Source: Candidatus Moranbacteria bacterium UBA2282 (GTDB lineage Bacteria > Patescibacteriota > Minisyncoccia > Moranbacterales > UBA2206). From it: a DNA stretch of 64,000 nucleotides. Shown piece by piece: positions 27,519-39,224 of this stretch (position 1 is its first letter; each line of letters begins with the position of its first letter). The position numbers were made by a program, and so were the translations under genes. The stretch is taken from the NCBI GenBank assembly GCA_002345745.1, contig DDWQ01000011.1:21995-85994 (forward strand). The letters are read 5' to 3'. Under the pieces are notes generated by a model that had not been told where the DNA came from, searched no databases, and saw only the letters and a list, made by a program, of their open reading frames with translations.

Positions 27519-27809
27519 ATGAAAAAATTTTATCAATGTGAAATATGTGATACTTTGTATGCTAGCGAAGAAAAAGCTTTGGCATGCGAGGCACTTGGAT
27601 TTAATCCACTGTATGAAATTGATGACAAAGTGATGTATGAGGGTGCGGTCGTCATTATTACCCATCGTAGTATTTGCGAATTAACACATGCTTTTATCTA
27701 TAGATTTTCTATGAACGCAGAGGATAATCCTGGTAAAATTCTTTCTTCGTGCGGATGGCAAAATGAAGAAAAATTATCTCCACAACACAATCTGCAAGGC
27801 TGTGCCTAA
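27519..27809 (+). CDS. hypothetical Cys-containing small protein
   Basis: Good SD (GGGAGGGTGGCACGATG). CEIC...C motifs. No assignable family. Confidence 0.4.
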   Translation: MKKFYQCEICDTLYASEEKALACEALGFNPLYEIDDKVMYEGAVVIITHRSICELTHAFIYRFSMNAEDNPGKILSSCGWQNEEKLSPQHNLQGCA

Positions 27810-27889
27810 AAAGCAAAAATTCGGCAATGTTCGAAAAATCGTCAAAAAAGGGGCGGAAAAATTCCAATCCTTTTTTATTTTACCAAATA

Positions 27890-27923
27890 TTAACATAATC
27901 TTACGGTCGTAAGTTAATGTTGG
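27890..27923. repeat. palindrome-containing element copy A (core CTTACGGTCGTAAG)
   Basis: TTAACATAATCTTACGGTCGTAAGTTAATGTTGG. The first 16 nt are identical to copy C. Confidence 0.75.
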
Positions 27924-28015
27924 GAATGTGCAGGTAGATAAAAAATTAAATAGATAGATGTATTTGTGATTTGAGATAAATTAATTGTTATTTTAAATGT
28001 CAACGTTATTTAAAA

Positions 28016-28050
28016 TTAACATCTTCTCACGGTCGTAAGATTATGTTATG
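28016..28050. repeat. palindrome-containing element copy B (core CTCACGGTCGTAAG), inverted relative to copy C
   Basis: 30 nt identical to the reverse complement of 28621-28654. Ends 8 bp before the ATG of the 28059 ORF. Confidence 0.8.
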
Positions 28051-28058
28051 ATTGGGAT

Positions 28059-28619
28059 ATGTATAAATTCGGACCGGTGCAAAAGAAAATAATGATCACA
28101 CTTTTGGGTGGGGTTGCTTTGGGGATGTCCTCAAATCCGCGACAATATTTCAAGACTTTGCGGAAAGTGCGTAAAGATTGGAATAATGTCGATCAATATA
28201 GCTTCAAGCGTTCCGTTTTACGACTTTCAAAAGAAAAACTGATTGAGGAGAAAATTCTTCCGGACGGATCATTTAAATTGGTACTTACGAAAAAAGGCGG
28301 TGAGCAGGCAAAGAAATTAAACTTGCTAGGTAATTCCATTAAATTTAAATTTCCGAAAAAGTGGGACGGAAAATGGCGAATAGTTATTTTTGATATTCCG
28401 GAAAAAGATCGGGTGTTTCGAGATATTTTGCGTGGACATCTTCATAAGCTCAAATTTATTAAATTGCAAAACAGTGTCTTTGTTTCACCGCATCCTTTTG
28501 AAAGTCTTATTTTAGAATTAGTTGGATTGTATTCAGCTGAAAAATATGTACGGGTAATTACGGCATTAAAAATTGATAACGAAGATGACCTTAAAAAGAA
28601 ATTTTTTGATAAAATTTAA
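28059..28619 (+). CDS. putative transcriptional regulator: wHTH-like N-terminus plus Cas2-like / PaaX C-terminal-like domain
   Basis: C-terminal WRIVIFDIPEKDRVFRDILRGHLHKLKFIKLQNSVFVS matches the Cas2/PaaX_C beta-alpha-beta pattern (hhhhYDI...R..h...L...G.RhQ.SVF). The N-terminal ~90 aa is basic and helix-rich. Confidence 0.5.
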   Translation: MYKFGPVQKKIMITLLGGVALGMSSNPRQYFKTLRKVRKDWNNVDQYSFKRSVLRLSKEKLIEEKILPDGSFKLVLTKKGGEQAKKLNLLGNSIKFKFPKKWDGKWRIVIFDIPEKDRVFRDILRGHLHKLKFIKLQNSVFVSPHPFESLILELVGLYSAEKYVRVITALKIDNEDDLKKKFFDKI

Positions 28620-28620
28620 A

Positions 28621-28654
28621 TTAACATAATCTTACGACCGTGAGAAGATGTGGG
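28621..28654. repeat. palindrome-containing element copy C (core CTTACGACCGTGAG)
   Basis: Begins 2 bp after the stop of the 28059-28619 ORF. Confidence 0.8.
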
Positions 28655-28712
28655 TTTTGCATCACAAATCCCGTCACAAATCCTTGCTTCTAAGAGCCAA
28701 ATAGGCTAGAAT

Positions 28713-29261
28713 TTGCATATGAAAAGAAAAATATATATTAGTATTAATTTGCCAGCGCGGACGAAAAAAAGCCTTAGTAGAGCCACACAGAAGTGGGAGG
28801 ATTTGCCTGTGAAATGGTTTAAAGAGGATAATTTGCATATCCAGCTTTTTTTTCTTGGTTTTGTGGATGATGATTCTACCTATGAAATTTGTGAAAAAGT
28901 CACAGAGGCAGTGCATGATGTAGAAATTTTTGATGTTGAATTTGACGCAATCAAACTTAGTCCGACGCCGGAAGATCCTAGAGTGGTTGTTGTATCTGGC
29001 AAGCCTAGTACGGCGTTGCGAAATTTAGTGGAAAAAATTGAAAAAGAATTGGGTATTTTTTCCAGTTCTAAGAAAGAATTCCGTCCAAACATCACACTTG
29101 GAAAAATTCGCAAAAATATGTGGCAAGAACTGCCAGAAAAACCTGAGATATATAAACACTTCCCGTTACTAGCCACTGTGGAAACCGTCGATGTTATGGC
29201 AAGTGATTTTGAGGGAGATGATTTGGAATACGCAATTATTGAAAGTTGTGAATTGCAATAA
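28713..29261 (+). CDS. 2H phosphoesterase (LigT/ThpR-like) with degenerate HxT/S motifs
   Basis: Architecture and spacing match LigT (ENLHIQLFFLGFV...PNITLGKI). The two HxT catalytic tetrapeptides read HIQL and NITL. Confidence 0.55.
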   Translation: MHMKRKIYISINLPARTKKSLSRATQKWEDLPVKWFKEDNLHIQLFFLGFVDDDSTYEICEKVTEAVHDVEIFDVEFDAIKLSPTPEDPRVVVVSGKPSTALRNLVEKIEKELGIFSSSKKEFRPNITLGKIRKNMWQELPEKPEIYKHFPLLATVETVDVMASDFEGDDLEYAIIESCELQ

Positions 29262-31492: not shown

Positions 31493-33577
31493 ATGTTCAC
31501 AAAAAACTTCACGCAACTAAATAGAAATGATGCTGATATCGCCGGCGGTAAAGGCGCTTCCCTTGGTGAGATGATTCAATCTGGCATTCCAGTGCCAGAG
31601 GGCTTTGTCGTGCTGGCGGGAACTTTTGAAAAATTTTTGGAAGAAACTGATTTGAATGTTGAAGTTGATGCAATTCTGCATACTGTGGATCACAATGCGA
31701 TGCACACAGTTGAAGATGCTTCCGAAAAAATTCAAGCCTTGATCAAGGCCGCACAAATGCCAAGTGACATTGCGCAGGAGATTGAAAAAGAATTTGTGAA
31801 ATTGGACGCTGAATTTGTGGCGGTCAGGTCCAGTGCCACTGCCGAAGACGGCACCGAAAATGCTTGGGCTGGACAACTGGATTCATACTTGAACACTACG
31901 GAGGATAATCTATTGGAAAAAGTGCAACACTGTTGGGCATCTCTCTTCACCCCGCGAGCAATTTTCTATCGCTTTGAAAAAAATTTGCACAAGCAAAAAA
32001 TTTCCGTGGCGGTGGTGGTGCAAAAAATGGTCGCCAGCGAAATTTCTGGCATTGCTTTTTCTGTGCATCCTGTCACGGAGGATTATAATCAGCTTATTAT
32101 CGAAGCCGGTTTTGGCTTGGGCGAAGCGATTGTCTCCGGCTCGATCACACCAGATTCCTATGTGGTGGAAAAAGAATCACGCAACATTTTGGACATTAAC
32201 GTCTCCACACAAACTCGCGGACTCTATCGCGCGCAAAATGGCGGCAATGAGTGGCGAGACGTTCCCGAACCGCAAGCCTCATCGCAAGTGCTGACGCAAG
32301 AACAAATATTGGAACTGTCGGAAATAATCCTTGGCATCGAAAAACATTATGGTTTCCCGTGCGACATTGAATGGGCATATGAGAACAGTAAATTCTACAT
32401 CGTGCAAAGCCGACCAATTACAACACTGCAAAAGAAGCAGGAAACATCTGAAGAAAATATTGTTGAATTTGTTAATAAGAACAAATTTCACAAGCAATTT
32501 GTTTATTCCTTTTTGCCTACGGTTTCCAAAACGTTTTTGCCAATTTTTACATTTGAGGCAACTACAAACTGCTACTTAAATAATCCACTTGTGGGCAGAC
32601 TAAGATTGAAGAAATTGCCAAAGTTTGTCATCACACTGAAGGATGGTTATGAAGATTGGGAAGGCGGTGACATGCAAAAAATAACCAGGGATACAGATAT
32701 TAAATTTATTATCCAAGAGTGCCGAACGATCATGGAGAAGCATTCACAATTCACAGAAGAATTGTTGCAAAAAGATTATTCAAAAATTGATAACATTGAG
32801 CTTGCAGAAATATTAAGAAAATCAAATGAGGTTATGAAAGAAATTTGCCAGCGTCAAATATTTTTGATTCGCGATTTCATTGAAACAGAAAACTCAGCAT
32901 ACATCAAAATTTTGCCAGAACTTCGAGTTGAAATAACTAATTTTGTAGATAAATTTTACATTTCTTGCAATGATATTCTGACATCGCTAGCTGATAGGTT
33001 TGAGCAAATACCATGGCGAACTTTTATGTATGCGACTACGGGAGAAATAATAGAACTATTACAAGGCTCAAAAGCTACTGATGAATTTGCAAAAATATAC
33101 CAGCGTCACATTGCGTTTGTATTTGATGGAGAAAAAATTTCATTCATCACGGATTCATCGATAGTTTCAAAGGTTGATGAAATTTTGCACAAGAAAGAAT
33201 CAGGCAAGCAAGTGGAAATTACTTCAAATCAATTTTATGGCAACTCAGCTTTTGGCGGCCACGCCAAGGGGAATGTGGTCAAAATCACAGATGCTCAATA
33301 CAGAGATATTGCAAAATATTTGGAAGATAAAAAGGATTATATTCTAGTGATTTCTATGACTCGTCCAGAATTTATACCATACTTAAAAAACTGCAAAGCC
33401 ATCATCACCGACGAAGGTGGTATCACTTGTCACGCCGCCATCGTTTCCCGCGAACTCAAAATTCCTTGCATCATCAGCACCAAAATCGCCACGCAAGTTT
33501 TGCATGATGGAGATTTAGTGGAAGTGGATGCAGATAAGGGGATTGTGAGAATATTGAACAGAAAAAAGTTGACATGA
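31493..33577 (+). CDS. PEP-utilising enzyme family phosphotransferase (PPDK-N ATP-grasp nucleotide-binding domain + middle domain + phospho-His swivel domain)
   Basis: N-terminus DIAGGKGASLGEMIQSGIPVPEGFVV (PPDK_N / PEP synthase ATP domain). C-terminus GGITCHAAIVSRELKIPCII with the catalytic His. No TIM-barrel PEP/pyruvate domain, so the architecture resembles rifampin-phosphotransferase/YvkC-like enzymes. Confidence 0.8.
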   Translation: MFTKNFTQLNRNDADIAGGKGASLGEMIQSGIPVPEGFVVLAGTFEKFLEETDLNVEVDAILHTVDHNAMHTVEDASEKIQALIKAAQMPSDIAQEIEKEFVKLDAEFVAVRSSATAEDGTENAWAGQLDSYLNTTEDNLLEKVQHCWASLFTPRAIFYRFEKNLHKQKISVAVVVQKMVASEISGIAFSVHPVTEDYNQLIIEAGFGLGEAIVSGSITPDSYVVEKESRNILDINVSTQTRGLYRAQNGGNEWRDVPEPQASSQVLTQEQILELSEIILGIEKHYGFPCDIEWAYENSKFYIVQSRPITTLQKKQETSEENIVEFVNKNKFHKQFVYSFLPTVSKTFLPIFTFEATTNCYLNNPLVGRLRLKKLPKFVITLKDGYEDWEGGDMQKITRDTDIKFIIQECRTIMEKHSQFTEELLQKDYSKIDNIELAEILRKSNEVMKEICQRQIFLIRDFIETENSAYIKILPELRVEITNFVDKFYISCNDILTSLADRFEQIPWRTFMYATTGEIIELLQGSKATDEFAKIYQRHIAFVFDGEKISFITDSSIVSKVDEILHKKESGKQVEITSNQFYGNSAFGGHAKGNVVKITDAQYRDIAKYLEDKKDYILVISMTRPEFIPYLKNCKAIITDEGGITCHAAIVSRELKIPCIISTKIATQVLHDGDLVEVDADKGIVRILNRKKLT

Positions 33578-33645: not shown

Positions 33646-34254
33646 ATGAAATATTTAGATTTTGCAGAGATATTTAAGGATTTTAACTCTTTTTCATTTC
33701 AGGATATTAAAAATGCCTTTGGTGATGTCAACCACTCACAATTGAGTGACTGGAAAAGGAAAGACCTTCTGCAATATGCAAAAAGAGGAGTTTTTGTTTT
33801 GCCAAATGCTAAAATTGACTTACATATTTTAGCTAACGAACTAAATTATTCGTATATATCCCTTGAATATGCATTGTCATATTATCAGATGATTCCAGAT
33901 GTAGCGCAAACCATTACTTCAATTTCAAAGGATAGAAATGAGAAGATTCACAATGAATTTGGCAGTTTCGTGTATCAAAAAATAGCTAAAGATCTTTTTT
34001 TGGACTACATTTTAGTTAAAAGTGAAAATGAGAAGAGATATTTTAGAATCGCGACTCCGGAAAAAGCCCTATTTGATTTGGTTTATTTACGGCAGGATTT
34101 GCAAACCAAAAACGACTTTGAATCTTTGCGTTTAACATTACCAAAGGATTTTAAAATATCTAAAATTAAAAAACTTTCCAGCTTAGTTAAGGCGAATAGA
34201 ATGAAAAGCAGGCTAAATAATTTAATTGATTATTTGTATGATTGCGTTAAATGA
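33646..34254 (+). CDS. AbiEi-like antitoxin (type IV TA, wHTH)
   Basis: Size, N-terminal wHTH-like segment and the position directly upstream of, and overlapping, the AbiEii-like gene. Confidence 0.55.
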   Translation: MKYLDFAEIFKDFNSFSFQDIKNAFGDVNHSQLSDWKRKDLLQYAKRGVFVLPNAKIDLHILANELNYSYISLEYALSYYQMIPDVAQTITSISKDRNEKIHNEFGSFVYQKIAKDLFLDYILVKSENEKRYFRIATPEKALFDLVYLRQDLQTKNDFESLRLTLPKDFKISKIKKLSSLVKANRMKSRLNNLIDYLYDCVK

Positions 34255-35011
34255 AATACTAAAATATTATTCAGCGACTGAAGTGAGGCATGTCAGGCAT
34301 ATTTTAAAGGAATATCTGCAATATCGAATTTTGAATATTGTTTTTTCTTCAAAATATGGAGATCGACTTATTTTTATGGGCGGTACTTGCATTAGAATTG
34401 TTCATGGCAATGATCGTTTTTCTGAGGATATTGATTTGGATAATTTTGATTTAACTGAAGAAAATTTTAGCGACCTTATGAATATTGTAAAGTTGGAGCT
34501 TGAGAAAGAGGGGATAAGCGTTGAGATCAGGAATACTTTCAAGGCAGTCTATCATTGCTATATTAAATTTCCTCAAATACTATTTGATAATAAGTTATCA
34601 CCATTAAAAGATGAGAAAATTTTAATTCAAATAGACAGTTTTAAACTAAAAAAGAAGCCGGGAACTGTATTGAAAATAATTAGTAAATTCGATGTTTTTG
34701 CAGAGATAAAAGTTTATCCGATGGAAATCGCTTTGGCACAGAAAATTCATGCCCTAGTAGAACGAAAGAGATTTAAGGGGCGGGATATTTATGATATCGT
34801 ATATTTGTATTCTTTAACGCAGCCGGATTGGAATTATCTGAAAAAATATTTAAATATTGGAAATCAAAAAGAGCTAAAAGAAAAATTGTTGAATTTATTT
34901 ACCAAAAAAGAATTACAAAGTTTGGCTAAGGATGTCGAACCTTTCTTGATTAACGCTAGAAAAGTAATTCAAATAGAAAAATTTAATGAGTGGGTTGAGT
35001 CTAGGTTATAA
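34226..35011 (+). CDS. AbiEii/AbiGii-family nucleotidyltransferase toxin
   Basis: MGGTCIRIVHGNDRFSEDIDLD matches the (K/M)GGTAL...R.SEDLD nucleotidyltransferase signature of DUF1814/AbiEii. Confidence 0.75.
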   Translation: MIICMIALNEILKYYSATEVRHVRHILKEYLQYRILNIVFSSKYGDRLIFMGGTCIRIVHGNDRFSEDIDLDNFDLTEENFSDLMNIVKLELEKEGISVEIRNTFKAVYHCYIKFPQILFDNKLSPLKDEKILIQIDSFKLKKKPGTVLKIISKFDVFAEIKVYPMEIALAQKIHALVERKRFKGRDIYDIVYLYSLTQPDWNYLKKYLNIGNQKELKEKLLNLFTKKELQSLAKDVEPFLINARKVIQIEKFNEWVESRL

Positions 35012-35213: not shown

Positions 35214-36689
35214 ATGGAAAATATTTTATTGGAAAAAATAAATCGTGAATGGCTACAAATTGCAGTTAGGCGTATGTCGTATCAAAAAATGCGTCTCTAT
35301 CATGACGGATTGATTCGAGGATTTAGAGATATTTTTGGTTATAATCAACATTTTTCTTTGGGCAGAATAAAAAATGGAGAGAATATTTATCATACAAATC
35401 GCCAAGAAGCAGAGGGTCAAGAAAAATTTATTCTAAATAAATTTATTGACACCAACTATATCAATTCAACCGTCAAAACACTTGGCAAAGAAATAGCATT
35501 GAATCTTGACAGCTATCTTGCATTTATCAAGTCCCTACCACAAGATTGGAGTGCCTATTCAAATAGTGAGCTAGTTGAAAATATACATCATCTGTATGAC
35601 AATGATCGCAAAGTTGAGGCATATTATTGGATTTTGTTTGATAATATAGAGAATGTTGCCGTGTTGGCAACTAGACAAGTAATGACTAGGAATGGCCATA
35701 ATGCAAAAGCGATAGAAAAAGCTTTTGCAGTCATTTCTCAACCGACTTTGATCATTCCGTTGGACATGGAAAGATTGTCTATATTGAAAGTGGCACTTTG
35801 TGAGAATGGCGCCAAACAAGAAACGCTGAAAAAGCACTGGGAAAAATTTGCTTATATGCCAATGTATGACATTAATTATGATTCACATGATTTGGAATAT
35901 TTCGAAAGAGAACTTGCCTTGATTGAAAAAGAAATTACCGTTGAGAATATTCAAGCTGAAATTGAAAATATAAACTTGAAATATTCTGATAGAAAAAAGC
36001 AGTGTTCTGATACTATCAAGCTTTTCAATAAAGATGCGGAAGTTGCCATCATGTTGGAATTTTTGAACGCTTTTGCCTCGCTCAAGGATCGCAAGCCCTA
36101 TGTTCGTGATCAAAGTAGCTATTTCACCAAAAATTTATTTGCTGAAGCTGCAAAGCGTCTGGACATTTCTTTATCCGAAGTTTTGTTTCTAACTAAAACA
36201 GAATTGGATGACGCATTGATTGGCAAACTTGAAATATCCAAATCAATGCTTGCGGAGAGAATCACAAGCAGCGCTTATTTATTTGAAGATGAGGATGTGT
36301 ATGTTTTCACAAAACCCGATGAATTAGCAATAATTGATAGTTATCTAGCGACGAAAAAAGATGCCTCAACTGAACTCAAAGGAGTGGTTGTGTCTAGCGG
36401 AAAAGCCGTGGGTACAGTGGCCATCATCATTAGTAATACTGATTTTGACAAATTCAAAGAAGGTCAAATACTCGTGACTAGCTCAACTCGACCTGATTTT
36501 GTACCGCTCATGAAAAAAGCAGTTGCTATCTTGACTGACGAAGGTGGAATTTTGAGTCACGCTGCTATCGTATCACGGGAATTGAAAGTGCCATGTATTG
36601 TTGGATTGAAAAATGCCACCCAAATTCTGGAAGATGGAGATTTGATTGAGATAGATGCAGCCAAGGGAATTGTAAAAATTATTAAATAA
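35214..36689 (+). CDS. PEP-utilising swivel-domain protein lacking the ATP-grasp domain (paralog 2)
   Basis: C-terminus GGILSHAAIVSRELKVPCIVGLKNATQILEDGDLIEIDAAKGIVKIIK. The N-terminal 400 aa are homologous to the middle domain of paralog 4. Confidence 0.7.
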   Translation: MENILLEKINREWLQIAVRRMSYQKMRLYHDGLIRGFRDIFGYNQHFSLGRIKNGENIYHTNRQEAEGQEKFILNKFIDTNYINSTVKTLGKEIALNLDSYLAFIKSLPQDWSAYSNSELVENIHHLYDNDRKVEAYYWILFDNIENVAVLATRQVMTRNGHNAKAIEKAFAVISQPTLIIPLDMERLSILKVALCENGAKQETLKKHWEKFAYMPMYDINYDSHDLEYFERELALIEKEITVENIQAEIENINLKYSDRKKQCSDTIKLFNKDAEVAIMLEFLNAFASLKDRKPYVRDQSSYFTKNLFAEAAKRLDISLSEVLFLTKTELDDALIGKLEISKSMLAERITSSAYLFEDEDVYVFTKPDELAIIDSYLATKKDASTELKGVVVSSGKAVGTVAIIISNTDFDKFKEGQILVTSSTRPDFVPLMKKAVAILTDEGGILSHAAIVSRELKVPCIVGLKNATQILEDGDLIEIDAAKGIVKIIK

Positions 36690-36693
36690 TCAT

Positions 36694-37719
36694 ATGGAAG
36701 TTAAATACGAAAAACATCAGCGTGATTATACAGTTTTGGCCTGTTCGGAAATTGCTGATGAATTTTTTGACCCAAGGATGAGTGGATTTTTTTCCTATGA
36801 TTCACATCCGGTTTTTATGTTGGTGGAAGATGGAATTTTTTATCATTTTGTAACTGAAAATGATTATTTAGGTTTGGCACTAGCCTATGCTAAAAAATAT
36901 CCCGAGGAACATTTGCAGAAATATGCACAAGAGTTTCAAGAAACATTAACGATTTATAGAAAATTTCTAATTCAAGCACATGTAAATGTGGCTGATGATA
37001 TTTTGAAGTTACATGAATACATGCGCATATTTTTACCGATAGTTATTATTTCAGCTTATCTTCCAATGTGTGGTGCAACCATCAATGAAAACACTATGGC
37101 ACTTTGCATGAAACTCAGACGAGAATATGAAGATGTACATAGAAATGGCATGACTTTAGAAAGGGAGTTATTAAATATCTTAGAGAAGGAATTATTCATC
37201 AAGCATGATTTTTTACGTTATTTGACCTCGAAAGAATTTAAGCATTTTCTAATTACCCATGAGTTGCCAAATGACATAGAAACAAGACAAAAATTTTTGT
37301 TGATGGAAGTTTATCGTGGAAAAGATACGGCATTTATTGGAAATGAAGCAATAGCTAAATTGAGAGAAATTGATGAACATAGAAATGTGTCTAATGTTCG
37401 GGAAATCAAAGGTAATGTGGCTTTTCGAGGCATAATAAAAGGCAGAGTGAAATTAATTAGATTAATAGAAGACGCCAATGATATTACGGAAGGTGATATA
37501 CTCGTGGCATCCATGACTGATCCGCGATACCTTCCTCTCATGAAAAAAGCTGGCGCTATTGTTACCGACGAAGGTGGCATCACCTGCCACGCAGCCATCG
37601 TCGCCCGTGAACTCAAAAAACCGTGTATAATAGGAACAAAGATCGCCACCCAAGTTTTGCACGATGGGGATTTAGTGGAGGTGGATGCGGATAAGGGGAT
37701 AGTAAAAATTATAAAATAA
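36694..37719 (+). CDS. PEP-utilising swivel-domain protein with short divergent N-terminal domain (paralog 3)
   Basis: C-terminus GGITCHAAIVARELKKPCIIGTKIATQVLHDGDLVEVDADKGIVKIIK. Confidence 0.7.
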   Translation: MEVKYEKHQRDYTVLACSEIADEFFDPRMSGFFSYDSHPVFMLVEDGIFYHFVTENDYLGLALAYAKKYPEEHLQKYAQEFQETLTIYRKFLIQAHVNVADDILKLHEYMRIFLPIVIISAYLPMCGATINENTMALCMKLRREYEDVHRNGMTLERELLNILEKELFIKHDFLRYLTSKEFKHFLITHELPNDIETRQKFLLMEVYRGKDTAFIGNEAIAKLREIDEHRNVSNVREIKGNVAFRGIIKGRVKLIRLIEDANDITEGDILVASMTDPRYLPLMKKAGAIVTDEGGITCHAAIVARELKKPCIIGTKIATQVLHDGDLVEVDADKGIVKIIK

Positions 37720-37724
37720 TTTGT

Positions 37725-39224
37725 ATGGGGGAAAAAACAGTTCTAGGTAATAATGCAATGATTTTGGATTATATTAATTCAAAAAATATATTTAAGCTTT
37801 ATAGTCGTAATATTTGTTTACAGATTAATGAAGTTTTTTTTAAATATTCGATGGCAGAGCTTAAAAAAAATAGAGGGATAACGTTTAGTTCATTATCTAT
37901 TAATAAAAACGGGTTTGTTGATTGTTATGGACAAACAGATGAAGCAGACGCTGTCAGTGAGAAAATCAAAAAAATTTATGAAAAATCAAAATCAATAAAA
38001 GATTTTTATGAAGATCATGCACTTCAATCATTCAATGAATATATTGAGTTTACCAAAAGAATGAATATGAAATATAGCGATAAATATAAAAAGATATCGG
38101 TCGATGAAATTAGAGGGGATTATGATAAATTTTCTAAAGTTAACGCAAAATTCATTAGCAATCTATGGTTTATTTATCTTTCAGATTCGCCGATTGATAA
38201 AATGCTAAAGGATGTGCTGTCAAAATATCTTGAAGGAATAAATAAAAAGCAGGATATGCAAGCATATCTTACTTTAATTTCAACTACTTTGAAAAAACCC
38301 GCAATAATTAGACAGCACAAAGAACTTTTGGAAATTGCATTAATAGAGGATGATGAAAAGCGCCAAATTGAGATCGAAAAACATTGTAAAAAATGGAATT
38401 GGTTTCCTTGCTACAATCCTTGTGATGATACATATGAATTAGCTCATTACACACATCAATTAAAGCAATACACTCCAGTAGTTGCCGAAAAAGAATTAGC
38501 TAAAATCAAGAAAGAAGAAAAAGAGCATGTAGATCAATATGACAATTTTTTAAAGTCAATAAAAGATGAAAAGTTGCATAAGCTTGTTAAAATGACAAAT
38601 GATATTTGTTTTTATCGCGAACATCGTAATGATTTACGTCGGGAGGGTCTTTGTTTGATTCGTCCTCTATATGAAAAGATAGGTATGATACTTGGATTAA
38701 ATGTAAAGGAGGTTTGTTATCTCACTAAAGATGAGATAGAAATATCACTTAAAAATGAAGAAATAAACATTTCTAAAGAAGATATTAATAATCGGATTTC
38801 AGAATACATTCTATTTACAAAAAATGAGAATTTCATATTAATTAGCAGTAGAGATACTATTAGTAGAATAAAAAAAATAATACAAAATAAGGATAGTGAG
38901 GATGATTTTCTCAAGGGCAGTTCAGCTGCTGGAGGTTTTGTAATAGGAAAAGTTTTTGTTATAAATAGCATAGACAAGTTAAAAAATTTCAAAGAAGGCG
39001 AAATATTAGTGACTTCTATGACGGCACCTGATTATGTAATGGCTATGAAAAAAGCGTCCGCAATCATCACCGATGAAGGTGGCATTACTTGTCATGCGGC
39101 CATCATTGCGCGTGAACTTAAGAAACCATGTATAATAGGAACAAAGATCGCCACGCAAGTTTTGCACGATGGGGATCTGGTTGAGGTGGATGCGGATCAG
39201 GGAATTGTTAGAATTTTGAAATAA
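37725..39224 (+). CDS. PEP-utilising swivel-domain protein lacking the ATP-grasp domain (paralog 4)
   Basis: C-terminus GGITCHAAIIARELKKPCIIGTKIATQVLHDGDLVEVDADQGIVRILK. The middle domain is similar to paralog 2 (HCKKWNWFPCYNPCDD vs HWEKFAYMPMYDINYD). Confidence 0.7.
   Translation: MGEKTVLGNNAMILDYINSKNIFKLYSRNICLQINEVFFKYSMAELKKNRGITFSSLSINKNGFVDCYGQTDEADAVSEKIKKIYEKSKSIKDFYEDHALQSFNEYIEFTKRMNMKYSDKYKKISVDEIRGDYDKFSKVNAKFISNLWFIYLSDSPIDKMLKDVLSKYLEGINKKQDMQAYLTLISTTLKKPAIIRQHKELLEIALIEDDEKRQIEIEKHCKKWNWFPCYNPCDDTYELAHYTHQLKQYTPVVAEKELAKIKKEEKEHVDQYDNFLKSIKDEKLHKLVKMTNDICFYREHRNDLRREGLCLIRPLYEKIGMILGLNVKEVCYLTKDEIEISLKNEEINISKEDINNRISEYILFTKNENFILISSRDTISRIKKIIQNKDSEDDFLKGSSAAGGFVIGKVFVINSIDKLKNFKEGEILVTSMTAPDYVMAMKKASAIITDEGGITCHAAIIARELKKPCIIGTKIATQVLHDGDLVEVDADQGIVRILK

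Follow-up and report, generated by a model that had tools for sequence, protein, structure and literature searches.

A palindrome-bracketed gene for a winged-helix and Cas2-like protein in Candidatus Moranbacteria and its relatives: a putative autorepressor with cognate 34-bp sites

The locus described here lies in a stretch of 64,000 nucleotides (the window, with a G+C content of about 36%) from contig DDWQ01000011.1 of Candidatus Moranbacteria bacterium UBA2282, and comprises a gene for a two-domain protein together with three related palindromes, copies A, B and C, two of them upstream of the gene and one downstream (Table 1). The window neighbours of this unit are def, priA, a 96-aa open reading frame (ORF), a LigT-like gene, wecG and riboflavin genes. 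Neither cas families, cas1 included, nor an antitoxin partner were found among the called neighbour genes, paa genes are absent from the vicinity of the gene, and no tyrosine or serine recombinase gene was seen adjoining the unit. Moreover, the 64 kb contain no repeat-spacer array of the CRISPR (clustered regularly interspaced short palindromic repeats) type, copies A and B being the only closely spaced direct repeats, and an Rfam scan of the whole window at gathering thresholds returned two tRNAs only. A preliminary description of this DNA had also found no cas genes and no CRISPR array, and the Pfam families of the neighbours and the array search agree with it.

Table 1. Features of the locus, in window coordinates.
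Feature	Position	Strand	Description and basis
Conserved unit (A, spacer, B, gene, C)	27869..28659	+	DNA homology to another genome's contigs
Copy A	27890..27923	.	34-bp palindrome, TTAACATAATCTTACGG and TCGTAAGTTAATGTTGG meeting at the centre; distal upstream site
Copy B	28016..28049 (to 28049/50)	.	Promoter-proximal palindrome, about -43 to -10 relative to the start codon
Promoter-like site	28024..28052	+	TTCTCA-17 nt-TATGAT, TG before the -10; consensus scan; inside or overlapping B
Gene	28059..28619	+	186-aa two-domain protein; PaaX-like without the PaaX C-terminal domain
N-terminal domain	28059..28343	+	Model secondary structure; weak profile matches to the winged helix-turn-helix (wHTH) regulators QsrR, YodB and F93
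Cas2-like ferredoxin-fold domain	28356..28586	+	Pfam PaaX_M, residues 100-176
Copy C	28621..28654	.	Downstream palindrome, one spacer base (28620) past the stop

The three palindromes are the only ones of their kind in the window. The motif CTYACGRYCGTRAG with at most one mismatch matches the 64 kb three times, at A, B and C, where 0.01 matches were expected, and a 30-nt pattern with up to three mismatches finds the same three sites alone (expected 0.00); a scan for any CGGYCG-centred palindrome gave no further copy in the window. The dyad centres lie at 27906/7, 28032/3 and 28637/8, giving spacings of 126 bp from A to B and 605 bp from B to C, with the gene between, and placing the centre of B 26 nt upstream of the ATG. 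Copy B ends 8 nt before the ATG at 28059, the TAA stop occupies 28617-28619, and nucleotides 28019-28048 are the exact reverse complement of 28622-28651 (B against C, 30/30) by repeat search as well as by direct reading. The preliminary description had claimed three related elements, the inverted identity of B and C and their closeness to the two ends of the gene, all of which hold. It had, however, drawn the dyad as a 14-bp core, which is too short: the element is symmetric as proposed, but complementarity is detectable to ±17, that is, over 34 bp.

The ORF is genuine, its N-terminus MYKFGPVQKK being kept in hundreds of homologs. Residues 100-176 of the protein match Pfam PF20803 (PaaX_M, the central Cas2-like domain of PaaX) over positions 2-78 of the 83 in the profile, scoring 80.4 bits where 24 is the threshold (E 1.1e-22). 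The structure predicted by AlphaFold2 on a diverse alignment, with a mean predicted local distance difference test score of 91, shows three helices, a β-hairpin and a further helix, which is the order of a winged helix, followed by β-α-β-β-α-β. Foldseek against the PDB ranks PaaX of E. coli W (8a39; 148 columns, probability 1.00), M. tuberculosis Rv0674 (3kfw) and a PaaX-like Jannaschia structure (3l09) at the top, and many Cas2, VapD and SSO1404-type structures after them; the E-values are modest (about 1e-3) but consistent, and a weaker first model gave the same ranking. The comparison with Cas2, VapD and PaaX that had been suggested earlier thus puts PaaX first. According to the model, the protein is a winged helix joined to a Cas2-like domain and is built like the first two domains of PaaX. 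The predicted winged helix, together with the weak QsrR, YodB and F93 profile matches, suits the earlier impression of a DNA-binding N-terminus, while the earlier assignment of the C-terminus to Cas2 or PaaX_C is right as to the Cas2-like fold, seen in the Pfam match, the model and the Foldseek hits alike, and wrong as to the domain, which is PaaX_M. No PaaX_C match was obtained with Pfam at E ≤ 1, the protein stops 10 residues past PaaX_M, and the model contains no further domain.

Public databases label the relatives of this protein as hypothetical, "PaaX" or "Cas2", and such names would fit a genuine PaaX of phenylacetate catabolism or a degenerate remnant of CRISPR adaptation, with a Cas2 and its leftover repeats. 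Hidden Markov models of Cas2 do match below their cut-offs (PF09827, 19.3 against 23.8 bits; TIGR01573, 21.9 against 24.5), and the Cas2 models of PADLOC reach an E-value of 4e-5 over residues 106-143 only. However, the PaaX equivalog TIGR02277 scores 28.4 bits against a cut-off of 264.55, the PaaX_C domain is missing and paa genes do not lie nearby; likewise, the 64 kb hold neither cas1 nor an array, and the repeats stand 126 and 605 bp apart and bracket a gene. Both identities are excluded by these failed domain, linkage and array tests, and we give them hardly any probability. By its profile scores, then, the protein is neither a Cas2 nor the phenylacetate repressor PaaX. Membership of a defence system was also rejected, PADLOC giving weak similarity to Cas2 only.

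The family is large. A word-indexed search returned 1195 near relatives, and an exhaustive search gave 4801 clusters at 50% identity with E ≤ 1e-3, 2378 of them with E ≤ 1e-10, nearly all of 180-230 aa. The closest protein relatives come from metagenome-assembled genomes of Candidatus Moranbacteria, and mean column identity within Moranbacteria is 71%. Among relatives of 27-42% identity, W102, D112, R121, S139 and F182 are invariant, the first four within the Cas2-like domain and F182 just beyond its C-terminal end, while the winged helix has almost no invariant residues. The pattern h-h-h-F-D-I-P-E ... Q-x-S-V-F retains the Asp and Ser positions, and D112, in FDIPE at the end of β-1, occupies the place of the catalytic Asp of Cas2; the Cas2-like domain might have a nuclease or recombination role.

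To see how the palindromes are distributed in the family, one genome per GTDB species was scanned, which yielded 79 related loci; a palindrome was counted when a CGGYCG centre with at least 9 of 15 complementary arm pairs lay within 200 bp of the gene. On this rule a palindrome stands upstream in 62 of 77 loci, downstream in 64 of 77 and on both sides in 51 of 74, and none lies inside the gene. The centre CGG(C/T)CG is invariant and the arms differ from genome to genome. The shared centre is usually ACGGCCGT, some loci having GGTC, or GCGG..CCGC, TCGG..CCGA or CCGG..CCGG one step out. Placement is similarly regular: in 23 loci the upstream centre precedes the ATG by 25-29 nt, the distance being exactly 26 nt in 16 of them, and the downstream centre, where there is one, lies in most loci within about 35 nt of the stop, often at 18-21 nt, some downstream elements even overlapping the stop codon so that its TAA forms part of the CATAA arm. 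Judged from these sequences, the putative operator-gene-operator bracket is a trait of the family, shared across thousands of relatives in the Patescibacteria.

A minority subfamily, L061 and L068, is bracketed by palindromes with a different centre, GCTATAGC, which suggests that the centre can also switch. In this distant subfamily (34-41% identity; 3782 and 4558 in L061 and L068) the centre was also read as TGCTATAGCA, and the arms in L068 resemble CATAAT. The flanking copies keep no constant orientation to each other, the two being more alike as direct repeats in 19, as inverted repeats in 13 and equally alike in 20 of 52 loci, and hence the inverted arrangement in the window is not a defining feature. 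Some further observations concern the state of individual brackets. Runs of N in L028 (3900-3930), L060 (3901-3945 and 4629-4685) and L078 (4516-4593) begin or end at GGCCG/CGGCC, the palindrome centres, where the repeats have probably led to scaffold gaps or masking. L073 (4001-4198) and L064 (4001-4246) hold fragments of the gene, residues 1-66 and 104-185, with the palindromes still adjoining, and are possibly decayed copies.

Copy B coincides with a promoter-like site, the -10 hexamer of which ends 6 nt upstream of the ATG, so that a leaderless or nearly leaderless mRNA is suggested. Across the 23 loci that share the spacing, TANNNT stands at -12..-7 in 14, the highest mean -10 score among the offsets tested falls at this position, and the left inner arm is often TTGACA-like (TTAACA, TTGATA or TAGACA). 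Promoter and leaderless start were assigned by consensus matching and not from mapped transcript ends. With B at -43..-10, the arrangement is likely the classic geometry of repression by promoter occlusion, and, as B covers the core promoter of its own gene, self-repression is proposed. In the mechanism envisaged, the N-terminal winged helix would read the DNA, and the Cas2-like ferredoxin-fold domain would most likely form the dimer, as in PaaX. The three palindromes would be cognate double-stranded sites with the half-site GTAWCATAAT-NNN-ACGG. A dimer on B would exclude RNA polymerase, so that the gene would repress itself, and A and C might serve as auxiliary sites for cooperativity, for looping, or as a block on transcription running in or out.

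Two comparisons of the arms speak for the palindromes being read by the protein that they bracket. Several genomes carry two paralogs, and genomes in general have one or two diverged paralogs and not identical copies. Of 26 arm positions, copies at one locus agree at 22, copies at the loci of different paralogs in one genome at 12, and copies from random loci at 11, the second figure being no better than the third. In a partial Mantel analysis of 53 loci that allowed for the C-terminal domain, arms were more alike where N-terminal domains were more alike (r 0.27, permutation p 0.0005); with the two domains exchanged, the correlation was negative (-0.18). The arms are private to each paralog and co-vary with the winged helix, not with the Cas2-like domain. 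Since variable arms thus pair with a variable winged helix, and an invariant centre with an invariant Cas2-like domain, we infer that the Cas2-like core might sit over the dyad with the winged helices at the CAT patches described below.

The element also occurs away from the gene in relatives. Metagenomes were scanned with CATAAT-N3-ACGGCCGT-N3-ATTATG, in which 20 bases are specified so that essentially no chance matches arise, and 103 occurrences were found in 84 stretches. A family gene is at most 200 bp away for 37 of them and 200-1500 bp away for 4, and 27 stand too near a contig end to be classified; the remaining 35 are solo, being separated from any family gene by at least 800 bp in both directions. 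The solo copies stand beside unrelated housekeeping genes (tsaE/polA, RNase J, ychF, uvrB, tgt and murB, and permeases), and as the closest gene end, 3' ends outnumber 5' ends by 32 to 14, with 11 copies in convergent and 3 in divergent gaps. A conserved regulon was, therefore, rejected, the genes next to the solo elements being unrelated and mostly approached from their 3' ends. Most large loci have a single solo copy, about one per 30 kb where it is present, and the total does not go beyond tens of copies. Many solo copies are perfect palindromes of 34-40 bp flanked by short A and T tracts. In L035, L148 and L151, moreover, clusters or arrays of palindromes lie between single small genes. 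In L148 (8333-9912), a pair of palindromes of two classes, about 104 bp from each other, occurs three times at intervals of about 600-880 bp, with small ORFs only between the repeats and no family gene in 13.7 kb. One solo site of L123 lies between two genes whose window orthologs adjoin, about 40 bp apart, without a palindrome, indicating that solo sites are gained and lost. Because the intergenic solo sites of relatives lie mostly past the 3' ends of genes, the protein may be the keeper of a small dispersed set of palindromes rather than a pathway-specific repressor.

The anatomy of the element bears on whether it is recognized as a duplex or acts as a hairpin. In an unbiased metagenome sample, the arms are plainly complementary as far as ±17, and the signal weakens by ±23. 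At the variable positions ±5-7 and ±14-17, a complementary pair is kept by 70-93% of copies, the figure after shuffling being 28-52%, and nearly every one of these positions shows all four kinds of pair. The consensus of 236 gene-proximal half-sites is G-T-A-W-C-A-T-a-A-T-n-n-b-A-C-G-G, in which CAT (-13..-11) and ACGG (-4..-1) form two strongly conserved patches separated by about one turn of the helix, and conservation is periodic at about 10 bp. Half-sites are also mixed. In the window, CATCTTCTCACG is joined to CATAATCTTACG in both B and C, and A is made up of CATAATCTTACG and CATTAACTTACG, a mixing that is non-compensatory; hybrids are likewise present in L035, L153 and L040, and about 30% of the variable pairs are mismatched in this way. 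On the sense strand, G-U pairs are no more frequent than A-C mismatches (28 against 26 downstream, 40 against 36 upstream). As RNA, A, B and C give weak folds (-7 to -10 kcal/mol, z about -2), the terminator scan calls none of the three, and at least 5 T in the following 8 nt are found after 12 of 73 related elements. Taken together, the hybrid half-sites, the lack of a G-U excess and the weak RNA folds argue for recognition of a duplex by a symmetric dimer.

The palindromes could instead be structural hairpins, acting as bidirectional terminators, as stabilisers of mRNA ends or as DNA hairpins like the repetitive extragenic palindromic (REP) sequences, in which case the link to the gene would be secondary and the protein would bind the stem-loop or nothing at all. 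The persistence of complementarity at variable positions with four Watson-Crick pair types would suit such structures, as would the perfect solo palindromes with their A and T tracts, the preference of solo copies for 3' ends and convergent regions, and the downstream copy that abuts or overlaps the stop codon. However, the part equivalent to the loop is invariant across phyla, although a terminator needs no fixed loop, and neither the transcribed strand, the mismatched pairs, the scarcity of T tracts nor the folding of the window copies is terminator-like. The upstream copy, moreover, keeps a fixed register with the -10-like hexamer, and arms that co-vary with the wHTH and are private to each paralog also speak against this explanation. 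We regard it as improbable, and a hairpin or cruciform component alongside duplex recognition as possible.

The history of the unit can be read from its closest DNA relative, two contigs of one bin (L001 and L002) that share 88-94% identity with the window over 27869-28659. Homology to L002 starts at 27869, about 20 nt left of A, and the 94% identity to L001 ends at 28659. Beyond the unit, the ligT and wecG homologs have about 60% protein identity, and the upstream flank is unrelated. The gene has a synonymous divergence (dS) of 0.31 and a nonsynonymous divergence (dN) of 0.008, a dN/dS of about 0.03 that denotes strong purifying selection, while the adjacent ligT and wecG homologs are saturated at synonymous sites (proportion of differences, pS, 0.83-0.87). 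Given this difference, the unit has been exchanged between diverged genomes, far later than its flanks parted, unless L001 and L002 are chimeric; both contigs break within the gene and differ by 3.6% in their overlap. On a shorter time scale the picture differs. Proteins identical to that of the window (7 contigs) and to P0103 (24 contigs) each keep one fixed context across samples, which argues that no transposition is ongoing, and active transposition was rejected on this ground. Within populations the unit is thus stable, and over longer times it undergoes rearrangement or transfer. As to vehicles, the element is absent from the viral contigs of IMG/VR, the protein has no PHROG match and no relatives in phage records, and plasmid records hold true PaaX proteins only; an origin from phages or plasmids was rejected.

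Exchange of this kind might also mean that the unit is a recombination or nuclease cassette. The winged helix would then place a Cas2-fold nuclease dimer on the CGG(C/T)CG centre of 13-8-13 sites, and cutting and rejoining, or recruitment of a host recombinase, would move DNA between palindromes, solo copies being attachment sites or footprints. Several observations are in keeping with this: the outer palindromes mark the limits of the high-identity homology to another genome, with an insertion after C, the gene is far less diverged than its saturated neighbours, L001 and L002 break inside the gene and disagree there, and shared synteny among the 79 loci is almost nil, the genes next to the unit in the window being missing from nearly all of them. 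In L040 compared with L043, the order of cassettes relative to conserved neighbours is permuted beside the palindromes, and arrays in L035 and L148 part single accessory genes. Hybrid half-sites would be natural products of such joining, and solo copies next to unrelated genes at 3' ends or in convergent gaps, missing from the orthologous site of the window, would be natural remains. The reading also takes in the copy next to the stop codon, which a simple repressor leaves unexplained, and an Asp at the catalytic position of Cas2 that stays invariant at 27-42% identity while the wHTH is free to vary.

Against it stand the constant contexts of identical proteins on 7 and 24 contigs from many samples, and the one or two diverged paralogs per genome where identical copies would be expected. 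Purifying selection and about 70% identity across the class would be unusual for the enzyme of a selfish element. The orientation of the flanking copies is not fixed, and no target-site duplication is evident at 27869 and 28659, as examined by eye and with no empty site to compare. Viral contigs lack the element and phage records the protein, plasmids have true PaaX only, no recombinase was seen adjoining the unit, and a loose linkage to the rib/ppsA cluster persists in four or five genomes. To our knowledge, Cas2-fold proteins are not recombinases. We consider the cassette unlikely, though it is the main alternative. Its fullest version, a palindrome-handling system of the Patescibacteria in which the winged helix delivers a Cas2-fold dimer to the centre for nicking, cutting or aiding recombination, and the palindromes are portable joints that shuffle single-gene cassettes, the family's own gene included, and leave solo copies behind, is in our view rather unlikely. 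As a separate observation, a NUDIX-like gene directly follows the downstream palindrome in two unrelated loci, L001 (548-1145) and L035 (4647-5147), and compared with the window, the one in L001 has been inserted so that it parts copy C from the ligT homolog.

The preliminary description had offered two readings, an autoregulated repressor flanked by its own operators and a miniature inverted-repeat transposable element (MITE) whose terminal inverted repeats carry the gene as cargo. The second is not supported in that form: the orientation of the flanking copies varies, the 64 kb have three copies and all of them here, the context is fixed, the copy number is low and the paralogs are diverged. 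What survives of it is that solo copies do occur elsewhere and that the unit has moved horizontally, and for these two reasons a purely private pair of operators is not the whole story either. The operator reading, on the other hand, has been strengthened and extended by the conserved bracket, the overlap of B with a promoter-like site, the private arms and the way the arms track the winged helix. We think it probable that the protein is an autorepressed, site-specific dimer binding duplex DNA, with the architecture of PaaX minus its effector domain, and with cognate 34-bp sites at its promoter, on either side of the gene and, for many relatives, in a few further intergenic spots.

Several findings weigh against this view. 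A simple autoregulator has no need of a site at the stop codon, where most relatives have one. The part of the protein that is most conserved is the Cas2-like domain with its invariant Asp, which a mere dimerisation module would not require. Solo sites favour 3' ends and convergent gaps, where operators are unexpected, beside unrelated genes, and a solo site of a relative is missing from the orthologous intergenic region of the window. The gene together with its palindromes has been exchanged between diverged genomes, and the complementarity kept at variable positions would fit a hairpin or cruciform as well. Finally, the promoter and the leaderless start are consensus assignments and binding is predicted.

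Some features of the region were noted in passing. The 96-aa ORF (27519-27809), between priA and copy A, has an N-terminal CxxC...C motif and no recorded Pfam family, and it is missing upstream of the unit in L002. The LigT/2'-5' RNA ligase-like gene (28713-29261) matches Pfam LigT_PEase and 2_5_RNA_ligase2 weakly and has H-I-Q-L and N-I-T-L in place of the usual two H-x-T/S motifs of 2H phosphoesterases, so that it may be catalytically inactive. Between 31493 and 39224, four genes (31493-33577, 35214-36689, 36694-37719 and 37725-39224) each end in a PEP-utilizers-type domain, with near-identical C-termini (...ATQVLHDGDLVEVDA.KGIV.I.K) and unlike N-terminal parts; two ORFs at 33646-35011, between the first and second of these genes, presumably resemble an AbiEi/AbiEii-type pair. 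As well, near 44 kb, about 16 kb from the gene studied here, the cumulative GC skew of the + strand peaks and the skew itself turns from positive values (about +0.1 to +0.25) to about -0.13; this could mark a replication terminus or a switch in gene strand.

The domain is already in Pfam and the relation of its fold is implicit there. The palindrome bracket, the paralog-specific arms and the solo copies, however, are apparently undescribed, as no description was found in the literature searched, which does not span all journals. Here we seem to be dealing with an autoregulated wHTH protein of the PaaX type whose sites have an unusual, conserved architecture, with a modest chance of something more unusual. 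Either way, a very large neglected family, about 4,800 clusters of proteins of roughly 185 aa, comes with a predictable cognate 34-bp site, an arm code that differs between paralogs and an invariant centre, and therefore offers a testable system of protein-DNA recognition in organisms that cannot be cultured and have few known regulators. If the protein is only a repressor, it would provide a promoter and operator model, possibly a leaderless one, for the candidate phyla radiation. Should the Cas2-like domain prove active, a new way to mark and move DNA would be at hand, with a bearing on the relations among Cas2, VapD and PaaX, and if palindromes are indeed handled, a function like that of REP sequences and their associated tyrosine transposases (RAYT), or of dif, would have arisen on a Cas2/PaaX scaffold and could link Cas2 with the PaaX regulators. 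For annotation, the family should carry neither the Cas2 nor the phenylacetate-repressor label.

Among known systems, the REP/RAYT pairs (REPtrons) resemble the present one in having a single-copy gene flanked by palindromes that are also dispersed near 3' ends (here in relatives, not in the window), in paralogs that go with different palindrome classes, and in several palindromes per spacer (L151, L148). Unlike them, the protein here is not an HUH/Y1 transposase and the copies number tens at most, not hundreds; the palindrome centre is conserved instead of a 5' tetranucleotide, and the evidence favours a duplex over single-stranded hairpins. With loxP/FRT and dif/pdif, the sites share 13-bp inverted arms around an 8-bp centre, 34 bp in total, the bracketing of genes in either orientation and hybrid half-sites. 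The invariant centre and variable arms are, however, the reverse of lox and dif, and no recombinase stands beside the unit in the window. RTP/Ter of B. subtilis and ParB/parS are also cases of site-specific architectural or terminator proteins encoded next to their own sites, with a small wHTH dimer and few dispersed dyads, some of them overlapping and autoregulating the gene; no relation of sequence or fold goes past the winged helix, and the sites here are symmetric and so would not be polar.

Cas2 and VapD, ferredoxin-fold nucleases of CRISPR adaptation and toxin-antitoxin systems, have the fold of the C-terminal domain and its Asp and Ser positions in common with the protein, but here the domain is fused to a DNA-binding domain, scores below all Cas2 cut-offs, and has no cas1, CRISPR array or antitoxin partner. 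The mycobacterial Rv0674 lacks the Asp in the aligned stretch, whereas D112 is invariant in this family. PaaX itself consists of a wHTH, a dimerisation motif and a C-terminal domain; bound to an inverted repeat, it keeps its own promoter repressed through steric hindrance of RNA polymerase (PMC9493321). In contrast to PaaX, the phenylacetyl-CoA-responsive repressor of the paa operons, the protein has no PaaX_C effector domain, which presumably binds the ligand, and no paa genes nearby; its site is a contiguous 34-bp dyad with a CGGCCG centre and not TGATTC-N27-GAATCA, its gene is bracketed on both sides, and relatives have solo sites at the 3' ends of genes. What the two have in common is the succession of winged helix and PaaX_M, and the dimer on inverted repeats that excludes RNA polymerase at its own promoter (PMC9493321) fits the position of copy B.

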